Source of the DNA: Girardia tigrina
Taxonomy: Eukaryota
DNA: 64,000 nucleotides
Direction of reading: 5' to 3'
Assembly: GCA_001938485.1 (NCBI GenBank)
Contig: MQRK01236352.1
Span: 1 to 64,000 of the forward strand
The notes under the pieces are model-generated. The model worked only from the letters and a program-made list of their open reading frames with translations, was not told the DNA's origin and did not search any database. The position numbers and the translations under genes were made by a program. This document shows positions 16,736 through 31,044 of this stretch, in pieces; the stretch's first letter is position 1, and the number at the start of each line of letters is the position of its first letter.

Positions 16736-17149
16736 ATCAACTTTCAATGTTGATGGTCGAGGAAAGTGGGGAAGTTAGACGGAATATGCCAGATTCCCGA
16801 TACCAATTGCACACGTTTGTAAAATCGATTTTACCCCACAAAATTTTCAGCAGATAAGGAAAGTTACATTTATCCACTTTGGTCAACTTCGTTTCACGGT
16901 ACCAATAATCAAGAAATCGTTTCGAACGCGTCCTAAATATTCTAGTACTTACAAATGTTTTTTTCCACCACCGATTTATTTTCCAAAACCAAAATATTTA
17001 CCCGAGATACTTCTCCGATTTGAAAGCTGGTAAGCATATCAAGGTAGTTTTATTATTGTTAACGTAACGTTTATTAAAGCAGAATTAAGAGGCGTGTAAT
17101 ATTAAAGTCTAAATTTATATACATTATTTTTATCAAAAAAAGATAAAAA
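16736..17149 (+). repeat. 414-bp local duplication, copy 1
   Basis: Near-identical to 18025-18438 (two substitutions seen). Confidence 0.95.
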
Positions 17150-18024: not shown

Positions 18025-18438
18025 ATCAACTTTCAATATTGATGGTCGAGGAAAGTGGGGAAGTTAAACGGAATATGCCAGATTCCCGATACCAATTGCA
18101 CACGTTTGTAAAATCGATTTTACCCCACAAAATTTTCAGCAGATAAGGAAAGTTACATTTATCCACTTTGGTCAACTTCGTTTCACGGTACCAATAATCA
18201 AGAAATCGTTTCGAACGCGTCCTAAATATTCTAGTACTTACAAATGTTTTTTTCCACCACCGATTTATTTTCCAAAACCAAAATATTTACCCGAGATACT
18301 TCTCCGATTTGAAAGCTGGTAAGCATATCAAGGTAGTTTTATTATTGTTAACGTAACGTTTATTAAAGCAGAATTAAGAGGCGTGTAATATTAAAGTCTA
18401 AATTTATATACATTATTTTTATCAAAAAAAGATAAAAA
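18025..18438 (+). repeat. 414-bp local duplication, copy 2
   Basis: Near-identical to 16736-17149, offset 1289 bp. Confidence 0.95.
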
Positions 18439-25019: not shown

Positions 25020-25884
25020 TTAATTTCAACGTGAATTTGAATTTGCCCTACATTCGCCATTTTTGTATTATTTTAGCAAAGATAAATTGTATTGTTTTGC
25101 TATTTACATTTATTTCGATTGAATTTTTGTATGACTATGATGTTTTGTTGTGTGGTTGTAAGCGACATGAAAGGTACATAATTTATAAAATAATTAATAA
25201 ATAGGCTTCATTGATAATCACGAAATTAAGTTAACGTTATTTAAGTCAACTTCCTTTTATACATATCACTATTTAATAAATCATACAATCAACATATACC
25301 GTAAATGAATTGAAAAATTTTAAGAAAAGAATAATTAAAAATTAATATTAGAGTCTAAACTCATCAGTAATTCCTCACAAGTAACTCTTTCTCAATACCT
25401 ATTAACCGTTTGTATTCGAGAATCTATCTTCTGTCACTAGATTAATAGCGACAGCTTGATTGGCGACCGACGAGCGAAGTAAAGAAATACATCAACTATT
25501 TGTTGTCATTGGACTTTTAACCAGAAACATTATAATTAAATTCCAGAAAAAGAGCGAGAAGATAGATGGAGAAAACGACATCTGTTTGCGTTGTTATCTA
25601 CAAATGATTATAATGAATTTATCTTAATTTAGTCTATTTTAAACGATATTATAAAAACGGCAATGTACGAATAATTTTTTGTCCGGGACACCTGGATGTT
25701 AGGCATTATGGTTTAAGTTACTGAAAGCGGACATAGTAGGTCAAAATAAGATTTTCCTTAAAAAGTAAAATCTGAATTCTACAATTGCTGCAATTATTTT
25801 AGAAAGAAAAAGAGTTTCATGTTCATTGATAAAACAATATCTGTATCTTTGTTTCGCCATTTACCGTCTAATTGTTTTCCCTAG

Positions 25885-26009
25885 GGTTACGCAAATTAAA
25901 ACCTATTCATGGGACAACGCCCAAGTTGTCTTAGTTGGGAACAAAGTGGACTTAGATTATGAAAGAGCGATTTCGATAGACCGAGGACGGCAATTAGCAA
26001 ATCAATTAG
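25885..26009 (+). CDS. RAB3: Rab3 coding exon 3
   Basis: Acceptor TTTTCCCTAG|G completes the Trp codon across a 21.4-kb intron: [41 protein letters not shown] (NKxD motif). Confidence 0.95.
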
Positions 26010-26066
26010 GTTGGTTAAATCAAATCACTTGAAATATAATAACCGTTAATTTGATGGAAATTTCAG

Positions 26067-26204
26067 GTCTTGAATTTTTCGAAACTTCGGCTAAAGAAAA
26101 TCTAAATGTGAAAGCAGTGTTCGAAAGACTGGTTGATATAATATGTGATAAAATGAGTGAAAGTCTCGACACAGATCCATCAATAGTAAATAATCCAAAT
26201 AAGG
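26067..26204 (+). CDS. RAB3: Rab3 coding exon 4
   Basis: After a 57-nt intron: [46 protein letters not shown] (ETSAK motif); donor G|GTAAGT. Confidence 0.95.
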
Positions 26205-26869
26205 GTAAGTTTTCTATTTAAAAATTGAGTGATTGTTGGGATTATTTTCCAATGTTTTTTAATGAAAGATATGAAACGTAAAGATATGGAATCTAACTAC
26301 TGTTTTAGGAAGCGATACAAGTCTTTGTCGAATTTTAAGCCCATTTCACAAGGGTTAAAATATAGTATTTTGGTGACATCCCTTTTCCAACATTCATTAA
26401 TATCGCACTTCAATGTTATCAATCCTCATGAAATCACTTGAGTTCGAATTCATGCGATTCCATATGTCATTATATCACCGGAATATGCAATTACAATGTC
26501 AGATTGATTTACATAAAATGACCCTATGGGATATTATTCAATATTACCTCAAAATAAAATATAATAATTATTTAATTTTTATTCGGTTATTGTAGCCACT
26601 CTGTATTCACAAATAAATTATATCAAACAACTAGTGTTTTTACAGATAGTTTTTGAATAAAAAAACTAATTTTATTTTAAGTTTATCAATTATTATAAAA
26701 CGTTTTTTTGAAACCAACTATAGATCCAGTTTTCATTATCTTTTAAAAATTTGCTTCATTGGTTCTGTTTGTTAGGTATCACATTAGAGTCTTAATTTTG
26801 TAAAACTTGTAAGAGCATTAAAACTTTACGAACATCTGGAGATCACACCTACTGACTTCAATAATTTTT

Positions 26870-26992
26870 TGTGGAGAAATAGCAATCGGAAGTAAATATG
26901 ATTGTCCTACTGGATTAATTAATTGCGGGAACTTTGAGTCGGTGGATTTTCATTCGGGAAAATAAATCTTTGCAATCAGCTTTGACTTAACA
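26870..26992 (+). repeat. 5' LTR (123 bp)
   Basis: TGTGGAGAAAT...GACTTAACA; 16 mismatches against the 3' LTR by manual alignment. Confidence 0.93.
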
Positions 26993-27727
26993 AGCTATCG
27001 CGACAATGAACCGGATTAAATTTACGGATGCAGTCCGAACATATGATGTAGCGATTTGGTGTCGCAAGTTCGAAACCGTAGTGGAGGTCTGTGACATCGA
27101 CAAAGTGGCGGCGCTACCGATGCTCTTGGACGGGCGCACGTTTGACCTTTCTTCGGGTTTGACAAGCGAGGACCAGCGGAGCTATAATACGGTAAAGGCC
27201 GCATTATCAGAAGCATTCGGGCCCGATCCGCAAGAGGCGTTCGAGCAATTTAGATCGCTATCTATTCAATCGGGTGAATCGATCGAGGAGTATATGTCGT
27301 CCCTGCGGAAGCTAGCGACCGTCATCTGCATAGGGTAGGAGCCACAGGAATATTTTTTACGCTAAGCATTTCTTGCTGGACTGCCGACAGAAGTGTCGAA
27401 ACATCTTTTGTCGGAGACGGGGAAGGAAAACAATCCATTACGAGACCTGATCCCAATGGCGCAGTCACTTCTTCGCATCAACATGAGAACAGAGAAGGCG
27501 GTCGAACCACCAAGCGGGGGAGTGGTGGCATCAGCGTCGAACGTCAAGTACGGCGTTAATCAGAGACAGTGTTTTAGATGCAACCGGTGTGGTCATCTAC
27601 AACGGGACTGCAGGGCGTCACTAGAAGTGAAGGAGGGTCCATCACCAGTTTCAAAATTCAGAGTGTGCTTCATCAGCGGCGCACCGGATAACTTTTGCAC
27701 CGCCTGTCAACAACGGAATCGAAAGTC

Positions 27728-27766
27728 GGGAAAAGATCAACCCTCTACGCAGGGAGGGTACCTGTG
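27728..27766 (+). promoter_or_regulatory. -1 ribosomal frameshift signal at the gag/pol junction
   Basis: In-frame G GGA AAA heptamer, 6-nt spacer, stem CCCTCT/GGAGGG, loop CGCAG able to pair with downstream CTGTG. Confidence 0.65.
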
Positions 27767-30700
27767 AAAGTCGATGCGCAGTTACCCGTGTCATCGTCCA
27801 AGTCTGAGGAAAGATGGTGAGAGGACTCGTCGACATGGGGTGTTCCGTAACCATGATGGAACAGCGGCTGATGTGACCGGATCAGATTCAAAGTGTATCC
27901 GAAAAACTGCAAACGGTATTCGGTCAAGCAGTAGTGACACACGGGGCATGGGTGGAGATTGAAGTGTCAGGGAAGGTTTTAAAGTGCTGGGTTTTGTTGG
28001 CTAAAAGTTTGCAGTCGATTGGAGTGGAGTTGATCCTAAGAATGGATACAATCGCCTCAATAGGAGGGGTGAATGTGGGTGCTACAGGAGGAGGAATCAG
28101 ATTCGGCGCTGGTACAGTGAATGGATTGCAATAAGCACAGTGGGAGTCAGTAGGCAGTCATAGAGCACCGCCCGCGGCCGCTGCTGCAGCGCCAGTGAGC
28201 GACTAGTTAGATCAACCGGGGATCCAGACTAGTGCATTGAAGGGCGCTGCACCAACTTGTATCGTCGATCAGGATTTCACGGCAGTGTTCGATGGATCAT
28301 TTTGGTCTGTTACTTGGCAACGGAAAGATGGGCGAGCGCCGCCAGTTCGCAACAGTGTGTCGGAGTATAAATCCACCCGTGCGCATGAATTAGAAGTCGA
28401 TGCCGAACTCGAATAATGGAAAGCGAAAGGATGGATGGTGGAATGTGAAAGACACCAGCAGTCGACACTGCCCCTTATGGCAGTATTTCAAGAAGTAAAG
28501 GCGAAGGTTCGACCAGTCCTCGACTAACGAGAGTTCAACGAGTCGATCTCAAGTCATATGGCTTAGATCCTGGTGTGCGCTGAAAAGTTGAAAAAATGGC
28601 GCAGAATGGGACGAAACCTGGTCATTGTGGATCTGCAGCAGGCTTATCTACAAATCAAGGTCAGCCAATCCTTGTGGGCTTACCAGGTGGTACAAAATCT
28701 GAATAGATCTTATTATATAACCATGTTCAAGTTCAGGTTGAGTGTAGCCCCAAAAATAATGCAGAAAATTCTATCACACGTGTTGGTGTCAGATCCGGTG
28801 GTGCAGGCGAACACAGACACCTACTACGATGACATCGCAGTTAATGTCGCCGAAATTCCAGTAAATGGAGTTCTAAAAGTGTTGCAGTGCTTCGAATTAG
28901 AGTCGAAAGATCCAGTTCCCATAAACGGCGATCGAGTGTTGGGTCTCTCGGTTAAGGTGGACGAAGGCGGTGGCGCCGTGACGGAGAAATTCCAGCACTG
29001 CCAGAGCAAGTCACTCGCCGCAATTTATTCGCGTGGACCGGTTGGTTGGTGAGACATTACCGGGTCTGTGGTTGGTTAAGGCTGGCGTGCAGCATCATCA
29101 AAAGGATGGCCAGTGATTGTGGATGGGACACGATCGTGGAACCTCAAATTGTGGAAATAACTCGGCAGTTGGCGCACCGGCTCCAAACGGAAGATCCGGC
29201 CAAGGGCGAATGGGAGGTGCTGTAAATCGATAAAGGGCGCGTATGGAGCTACGCAAGCTCGATCGCGGTCGGTATATGCGTCGAAATAGGCGGCGTCGTC
29301 GTCGAGGATGATTGTTGTTTGCGTCAAAAATACGACACTAACCACATCAATTTAGCTGAGTTGGACGCCGCACTCAAAGAGGGAGTCAAATGAGGAGTTC
29401 GGGAATTGGAATTATTAACCGACTCAGCAACAGTCACCAAATGGCTTTCATCGGTACTGTCGGGACGCGAACCGATTAGAACTCAGGCACTCAGTGAGAT
29501 TCTAATTTGGCGACGGGTGAGCCTTTTTAAACAAGTCTTCGAGGAAGAGAAACTGAAAGTCACCATAACACTGGTCCGACCAGAAGAAAACAAAGCGGAC
29601 GAGTTGACTCGAGTTCCATCCAGCTGGTGGAGGTTCACGAGAAACCCTGCGGTGGTAGCAGCAGTAACTGTCAGAGGTCAATGGGAATCAGTGGATGGTC
29701 TTAAGCAACTCCACGAGATGCATCATTTCTGAGTGAGAAGATTGATCTTCCTAGCAAGAAAAATACTGGGTCCAGGCAAGGTGTCAGAAGACTAAATCAG
29801 AGCAGTGATTCAGGAATGCGAGCAGTGTGCATCAATCGACTCATCGCCAATTCATTTAGAGAAAGGTGATCATGGGGTAAGGAAATCGTGAACCTGAGTT
29901 GCTGTGGATGTAACACACGTTGGGGCGACCAAATTTCTGACCATAGTGAACTGTGGCCCGGGTGATTAATGATATGGCTCCAAATAGTAACGGAGAGTGA
30001 AGTGGATATCTGTTCCGCAATGAACAGCGTCTGGAACAAATTTGGTCCACCAGAGGAAGTAGTTCTTGATAACTATTGCACTTTCAAGGGGTAGGGCGTA
30101 TTGAGATTGCTAGAACGAGTGGGTATTGAAGCTCATTTCAGATGCGTTAACCGTCCGAGTGGAAATGGAATTGTGTAACGCGGCCAAATTACTATTAAAC
30201 GAATGGTGGCTCGGAGTAACAGGCCGTTGGGTGAGATGGTTGCGTGGTATAATGCAACGCCAAACGCAAGTAGCGTCATTCCAGCCTCGACCATCTTTGC
30301 TCGCCGACGAAGGCTATTATTGCCGAAGGCATTCAACCTCACTAACATGAGTTGGAGTAGAGAAATACGAACTAAGGTATTTCGAATCGGATATGAAGTA
30401 TTTGTGAAACCGGCACCACCGTATTCGTGCATGTCATAGTGGAGACGCGCAACCATTACCGGATTGCACTTGCCACATCAAGTGGAAGTCAACGGCAGAC
30501 CCTACCACGTAAGTTACGTGCGGTTGGCCCCACCCGCGGCGATCAGTGATGATGTCGGATGAACCGAGATCAGGAATACGGGCGATCCACGCGTGATTAG
30601 TGAAAGTAGCGATCGAGACGGGCCACAAGCCGTCGAATGCAAGTTAGAAGAGCGAGTAGAGTCTCCGGTGGAGCGGTCAAAAAGAGCTATTCACCGTCCA

Positions 30701-30804
30701 GCGAGATTCGAGGAATTCGTCTGTACGGGAATTCAAGCCAGTGTCGGTGATCGGACCCCCCCTGCCCAAGCGGTGTCTACTTGTGTACCTTGAGGGCAGG
30801 GGCG

Positions 30805-30927
30805 TGTGGAGAAATAGCAATCCGAATTAAATACGATTGTTTTACCGGATTAATTAATTGTGGGAACTTTGAGCCGGTTGGTTTTCGTTCAGAAAAATAA
30901 ATCTTTGTCATCAGCTTTGACTTATCA
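30805..30927 (+). repeat. 3' LTR (123 bp)
   Basis: TGTGGAGAAAT...GACTTATCA directly after the polypurine tract. Confidence 0.93.
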
Positions 30928-31044
30928 TTATTTTCAAATCCAAACAAATTTTTTAATTTTATTAATAGTTAATAATAATACAATGCAAATACTACAAAAT
31001 ACAAGTAATAATACAAATTTGTTGATAATTTACCAATAAAAAAT

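Follow-up and report, generated by a model that had tools for sequence, protein, structure and literature searches.

The window, by which we mean the whole 64,000-nt stretch of DNA analysed here, contains a decayed LTR retrotransposon of 4.06 kb at 26870–30927, with the following features.

26865–26869, + strand: left copy of the target-site duplication, 5 bp, identical to 30928–30932 at 4 of 5 positions
26870–26992, + strand: 5′ LTR, 123 bp, TG...CA
26961–26966, + strand: AATAAA inside the 5′ LTR
26993–27004, + strand: putative 12-nt primer-binding site (PBS), corresponding to the complement of tRNA-Phe(GAA) nt 1–12 and adjoining the LTR with no spacer
27006–27760, + strand: decayed gag, ATG at 27006–27008, with stops, frameshifts and a 12-nt deletion near 27049
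27760–30540 (approximate limits), + strand: decayed pol, with protease, RT, thumb, RNase H, and H2C2 and DDE integrase
30792–30802, + strand: polypurine tract (PPT), then two bases before the 3′ LTR (30792–30804 in all)
30805–30927, + strand: 3′ LTR, 123 bp, TG...CA
30928–30932, + strand: right copy of the target-site duplication, 5 bp

This layout agrees with that of Ty3/gypsy elements, with two direct TG...CA LTRs, a PPT and a target duplication within the 4–6-bp range. The two LTRs (26870–26992 and 30805–30927) are identical at 107/123 positions, and U5 is very short, because the AATAAA sits at 26961–26966. Both LTRs are present in 8 of 21 family copies examined, and the 5-bp duplications flanking these eight are perfect in five and match at four of five positions in three. 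Gag retains a weak zinc-knuckle match at about 27564–27614; pol carries many stops and frameshifts, with a YYDD motif near 28825 and RNase H at about 29230–29620. The RT piece of the window copy alone gave no Pfam or PDB match; the pol domain order listed above was taken from intact relatives, in which the thumb corresponds to DUF7047. Exons of a small GTPase that we take to be Rab3-like (25880–26210, assigned by eye) precede the element by about 0.7 kb on the same strand. Elsewhere in the window, a 300-bp direct repeat (16736–17035 and 18025–18324, 99% identical, 1289 bp apart) is possibly a small LTR element or a duplication.

Searching with the RT piece (E up to 0.001) returned 550 representative proteins, with proteins of the nematode Trichuris suis, the sea spider Nymphon striatum and the barnacle Amphibalanus amphitrite as the named members among 20 clusters looked up. 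The domain order of six intact relatives is RT, DUF7047, RNase H, H2C2 and rve, with a protease match in four of them, and this protease–RT–RNase H–integrase order is also common to BEL/Pao elements and retroviruses. The RT of the lineage is short and divergent. In a structure model (mean pLDDT 83.5), the RT palm is followed by DUF7047, folded as three helices, and then by RNase H, from which we read DUF7047 as the RT thumb. The four acidic residues of RNase H are kept in 39–40 of 40 intact relatives, and the RNase H of the six relatives matches the Pfam families RVT_3/RNase_H, not RT_RNaseH; no chromodomain match was obtained in the same six. A profile search placed three retroviral integrase chains first, followed by Ty3-G Gag-Pol (E 2.8e-19), the best Foldseek matches were foamy-virus and HIV RT at 11–14% identity, and the Atlas neighbours are RT_RNaseH-type polyproteins. 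No relative was found in IMG/VR. Five elements of the lineage (L186–L190) lie on short contigs of bacterial MAGs (GTDB), most likely as binning contamination.

A 12-nt site at the LTR edge

The leader of the window copy, AGCTATCGCGACA (26993–27005), comprises the 13 nt between the end of the 5′ LTR at 26992 and the gag ATG. Re-reading the window agrees with the earlier note on the length of this leader, on its lack of TGG and on the reverse complement of its first 12 nt. Against the complement of nt 1–12 of the host tRNA-Phe(GAA), the window leader matches at 11/12 positions, with the mismatch at 27003. The caution that a decayed copy may deviate from its family was justified, as 27003 carries a minority letter: about 97% of the depth at this position differs from it in two DNA runs, which are possibly the window's own source and not independent.

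Family copies were compared one by one, not via a consensus, and were read by eye. The exact complement of host tRNA-Phe nt 1–12, AGCTATCGCGGC, stands in 12 of 29 other copies, which bears out the register that the earlier note had assigned to the 12-mer, namely tRNA positions 1–12. A further 11/29 copies are one base off, 3/29 two and 1/29 three, and 2/29 carry a 4-nt insertion. None of these copies has a TGG-type PBS at the LTR edge, the only candidates being isolated TGGs five bases in (2/29). Most other copies are 12 nt longer than the window copy within the first 300 bases, and we considered whether a PBS had been deleted from the latter. This was rejected: the 12-nt gap falls in gag, near 27049, and not in the leader, so no PBS was lost.

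The exact Phe-type 12-mer has 1122 matches in the host genome against 8 for the reversed control, which excludes chance as the source of its abundance. The first 30 matches listed belong to several families with differing LTR ends and gag starts. At all 30 of these loci the 12-mer is preceded by an A and follows an LTR-like end (of the same or a different family), and at most of them an ATG stands 0–12 nt past the word. Matches to lineage proteins were found by tblastn at 18/30, some of which may belong to neighbouring copies. In column counts over 50 sites of this genome and 30 from metagenomes, LTR ends resembling ACA precede the site, and the sequence beyond base 12 is free.

Leaving the middle four bases open gave 4437 genome matches against 1162 for the control. 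By eye, 51 of the first 100 matches listed are the complement of nt 1–12 of the host tRNA-Lys(TTT) and 23 that of the host tRNA-Phe; 19 others lie one step from Lys or Phe, 2 lie two steps away and 5 are unrelated. The Drosophila-type Phe word described below is absent from the same 100 (by eye), and the host Thr genes, which fit the GCC...TAGCT frame, yet account for none of them. All 20 Lys-type sites fetched follow ACA, with an ATG within 5 nt in 19. The Met-type site word, a variant carried by the metagenome element L152, has no match in this genome, and none of the LTR edges inspected showed a TGG-type site. From candidate site to gag ATG the distance is 0–26 nt. Two loci (L045 and L055) have an ATG past the 12-nt site but no gag-like frame; these are possibly non-autonomous riders of the lineage.

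Host tRNAs and variation of the site with tRNA 5′ ends

The 5′ end of the host tRNA-Phe rests on split pieces, because the gene is assembled only as interrupted copies. Host tRNA-Phe pieces start with GCCGCGATAGCTCAG, complementary at 7/7 positions to the acceptor strand at the end. GCCGCGATAGCTCAGTTGGG occurs at four places, at each of which the match to the tRNA breaks off ahead of the anticodon loop. The corresponding 3′ parts have the GAA anticodon and an acceptor strand that pairs 7/7 with the first seven tRNA bases. Three further tRNA-Phe 3′ pieces end in CCA, and a mature tRNA with that stem has therefore existed. Judged from these pieces, the first bases of the host tRNA-Phe(GAA) are most likely the leader's exact complement. 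The host tRNA-Lys(TTT) is represented by an intact gene, and the complement of its nt 1–12 is the Lys-type site.

No uninterrupted tRNA-Phe gene turned up in the assembly. ARAGORN reported no tRNA gene in 12/12 loci, pattern and DNA searches of the assembly returned split copies only, and an Rfam search, in which 63 of about 57,000 candidates were scored and 27 loci fetched, gave no tRNA-Phe gene. Split tRNA-Phe(GAA) copies are found in a tandem unit of roughly 340 bp (L103, on G000:C181207, and L105, L106, L109, L110 and L115). Most split copies share a breakpoint just before the anticodon loop and contain kilobase-long inserts with common ends, making the inserts a candidate mobile element that targets tRNA-Phe; six insert ORFs gave no Pfam match over the cut-off. 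At L112, L113 and L114, another repeat begins with some 36 nt of tRNA-Phe 3′ sequence including CCA, probably a reverse-transcribed copy of a mature tRNA end.

The 12 bases after the 5′ LTR are thus the exact complement of host tRNA nt 1–12, of Phe-GAA in this family and of Lys-TTT in sister families. The match extends over all 12 bases and not merely over the TAGCT shared by many tRNAs, a distinction on which the earlier reading had depended.

We also collected 75 metagenome/MAG loci of the lineage, of which 35, with at least 850 nt upstream of pol, were assessable. The motif AGCTA-N4-GGC lies some 730–990 nt before pol in 27/35 of these, where simple arithmetic predicts about 2 chance occurrences per 100 such stretches, and four further loci with less upstream DNA carry it too. 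The eight assessable loci lacking the motif comprise four near variants, three elements without gag and one (L151) with nothing. In all four metagenome elements with two LTRs, the site adjoins the LTR end.

With one duplicate left out, 30 metagenome sites show ten word variants (9, 5, 4, 4 and 3 sites, and five singles). The commonest word equals the end of a 5′ probe for Drosophila tRNA-Phe(GAA) given in the accessible part of PMC7038984, and another equals the start of the human Lys(CUU) primer in the portion available of PMC12140204. Further words equal the starts of host Phe, host Lys(TTT) or tRNA genes on viral contigs, the viral-contig matches being weak (Phe in 6/25; Phe 2 and Thr 4 of 40). 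In total, 26/30 site words equal some tRNA start and 4/30 are tied to none. The covariation between leader and tRNA 5′ ends that the earlier note had suggested looking for is thus seen across relatives; host-specific matching is established for this genome only. One variant leader, that of L152 (approximately 2735–2750), has C as its first base and fits a tRNA with G at position 12, possibly a compensatory change at the predicted cut position, for example to an elongator Met-type tRNA.

A gag tree was built from 54 of 78 loci, 24 having been dropped for short or missing gag matches. On its 54 rows the host-Phe word needs three changes, of which at least two fall on starred branches, and one host pair groups within foreign elements that carry Lys-type words. 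Because the own-genome rows of this tree were chosen by motif, the unbiased evidence for host matching is the open-middle genome search. What we observe, then, is complementarity in an exact register and with sharp limits, conserved across families and varying in step with tRNA 5′ ends.

Proposed priming mechanism and alternatives

These observations suggest that the 5′-terminal piece of a tRNA is very probably the primer, and the earlier proposal that minus-strand synthesis is primed by a very short 5′ tRNA fragment is supported to this extent, with none of the three refutation tests set by that note speaking against it. In the mechanism that we propose, the 5′ strand of the tRNA would anneal to the site, and the acceptor stem would be displaced along with part of the D-stem. 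Within the duplex, G1 of the tRNA stands opposite the last base of the 12-nt site and U12 opposite the first, and by the column counts C13-A14-G15 face the ACA of the LTR without matching it. If the tRNA were cut after U12, for which the RNase H of the element itself is the most likely agent, a 12-nt primer would remain with its 3′-OH at the LTR edge, and minus-strand synthesis would start from there. Plus-strand synthesis would later re-copy the site from the primer until it ran off the template at nt 1 of the tRNA. Both the site's length of exactly 12 nt and its tracking of host tRNAs would be explained in this way. The full scheme, a 12-nt tRNA 5′ primer cut after U12 by the element's RNase H, we consider on balance probable.

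Co-folding of the host tRNA-Lys with a Lys-type leader yields the 12-bp duplex at −25.5 kcal/mol. The complex reaches −41.4 kcal/mol against −39.1 for the two molecules apart, a gain of only 2.3 from a model that includes neither modifications nor tertiary structure. At its best, pairing by the 3′ 18 nt of the tRNA reaches −12.2 kcal/mol, lies elsewhere and does not place the 3′-OH at the LTR edge. The one RNA run with coverage reached four distant contigs only, and no RNA was seen over the leader.

Several other readings of the site have to be weighed. The host might make a 5′ tRNA fragment by a cut in the D-loop and trimming down to the 12 paired nt, and this fragment might be packaged and used with no cut by the element's RNase H. 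All of the sequence evidence fits this equally well, 5′ tRNA fragments are common in animals by the accounts available, and copia-type half-tRNA primers, as described in the accessible part of PMC6317226, show that cut tRNAs can prime. Position 12/13, on the other hand, lies within the D-stem. Host 5′ tRNA fragments usually end at 14–16 or later, and an unpaired tail would have to be removed before priming, because C13-A14-G15 mismatch the ACA of the LTR; we regard this origin of the primer as unlikely. A different placement of the cut, after nt 10, is conceivable because two bases separate the PPT G-run from the TG of the 3′ LTR, in this family as in four metagenome elements, and the first two leader bases could then be a retroviral-type 2-nt spacer removed by integrase. 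Such a cut is made improbable by the AG that occupies the first two positions in families whose LTRs are unrelated, just as tRNA C11-U12 require (in the metagenome set 30/30, by selection), and by L152, whose first base C would pair with a G12 tRNA such as the host tRNA-Met.

The site might also hold an intact tRNA through pairing with its 5′ strand, serving packaging or control of translation, while priming proceeds in another way, for example from the freed CCA end. A tRNA bound 0–26 nt from the gag ATG could indeed affect translation; against such a role, no other candidate PBS was seen at the LTR edge, the 3′ 18 nt of the tRNA pair at −12.2 versus −25.5 kcal/mol with their 3′-OH away from that edge, and the end of the duplex coincides exactly with the LTR boundary, a precision that a role other than priming would not require. 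We hold it to be very improbable. Self-priming of the Tf1 type, or priming by the 3′ end of another RNA with the tRNA match being incidental, is largely refuted and the least credible reading of all. Its attraction is the geometry, 11–12 nt next to the LTR, which is that of Tf1 and Tj1, but each of the two dominant genome words is the exact complement of the start of a different host tRNA. A better partner for the leader in its own LTR, which the earlier note had named as a possible counter-finding, did not appear: the best Watson-Crick match is 6–8/12 in 25 LTRs (21/21 own-genome copies and 4/4 metagenome elements), and self-priming is excluded on this ground. Lastly, we rejected an antisense Pol III A-box as the origin of the word, since an A-box would extend into the LTR, where the sequence does not match, and since the acceptor-stem bases 1–7 would have no need to follow tRNAs.

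Taken together, the site is real and common across the lineage; judged from sequence, its most plausible role is that of a primer-binding site to which the first 12 nt of a tRNA would pair. Because self-priming is excluded and Tf1 acts likewise with its own RNA, the reaction at this site may be a trans version of the Tf1 reaction carried out on a tRNA.

Comparison with known primer types

The available part of the survey by Neumann et al. (PMC6317226) lists three primer types for LTR elements: the 3′ end of a whole tRNA, a half tRNA cut in the anticodon stem and a self-primer. The present lineage, with over a thousand exact sites in one genome, fits none of them. A recent metazoan survey (PMC13524379), in the part accessible, used tRNA 3′ ends only, and its supplements could list such elements without a PBS; surveys of this kind would score them as PBS-less, because they look only for tRNA 3′ ends. 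The discussion of hairpin versus tRNA priming in the available text of PMC3601003 does not include the present type, and the term PBS has no match in LTR surveys of molluscs, annelids and rotifers (PMC6238403, PMC8556966 and PMC5408684). The literature searched, in the parts accessible and with subscription journals, Repbase and Dfam beyond its reach, contains no description of a priming site for a tRNA 5′ end.

Canonical Ty3/gypsy elements and retroviruses share with this lineage the TG...CA LTRs, the PPT, the 5-bp duplication, the PR-RT-RH-IN order and a host tRNA as the source of the primer. Here, in contrast, it would be the other end of the tRNA that is read. The RT, short and divergent, has DUF7047 as its thumb, and no TGG-type PBS was seen beside the LTR, the two isolated TGGs mentioned above aside. 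Half-tRNA priming, known from Drosophila copia, Ty5 and the plant elements Osser, Bryco and Bianca, resembles the proposed mechanism in its use of a 5′ tRNA piece, which in our case would likewise be cut, and in a PBS that is not of the TGG type. According to the accessible part of PMC6317226, the cut in those systems lies in the anticodon stem of tRNA-Met or tRNA-Ile, and in plants they are exclusively Ty1/copia elements. The lineage described here has the order PR-RT-RH-IN, and its site matches nt 1–12 of tRNA-Phe or tRNA-Lys, not the anticodon stem of tRNA-Met or tRNA-Ile.

The closest parallel in geometry is that of Tf1, Tf2 and Tj1 (Tf1/sushi, Ty3/gypsy), where an 11–12-nt primer comes from the very 5′ end of an RNA and the PBS lies beside the LTR, as described in the available parts of PMC7175516 and PMC4600332. 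In Tf1, the initial 11 bases of the element's own RNA form pairs with the PBS, and the cut by RNase H falls between bases 11 and 12 (PMC7175516, in the portion accessible). The site described here likewise appears to be an 11–12-nt PBS close to the LTR and paired with the 5′-terminal bases of an RNA, whereas the 5′ end is that of a host tRNA acting in trans, the LTR holds no complement to the site as it would if the PBS paired with the 5′ end of the element's own transcript, and no chromodomain match was obtained in the six relatives.

If our reading is correct, the lineage would add a fourth primer type and a mechanistic bridge between tRNA priming and Tf1 self-priming. Very short 5′ tRNA fragments would gain a direct role, with the element itself as a source of 12-nt fragments, and some of the elements that annotation pipelines class as "no PBS found" would be explained. 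A simple diagnostic would be the complement of a tRNA's 5′-terminal 12 nt right after a CA. Such elements would also be predicted to escape silencing by 3′-tRFs and to meet 5′-tRFs instead. The geometry is like that of Tf1 and the predicted use of a cut tRNA like that of copia, yet the lineage can be placed with neither. The proposition that a deep animal lineage, apparently without a name, performs Tf1 chemistry in trans as a fourth primer class, by opening mature tRNA at the 5′ end and severing it after U12 through an RNase H of its own, is one for which we see the case as evenly balanced.
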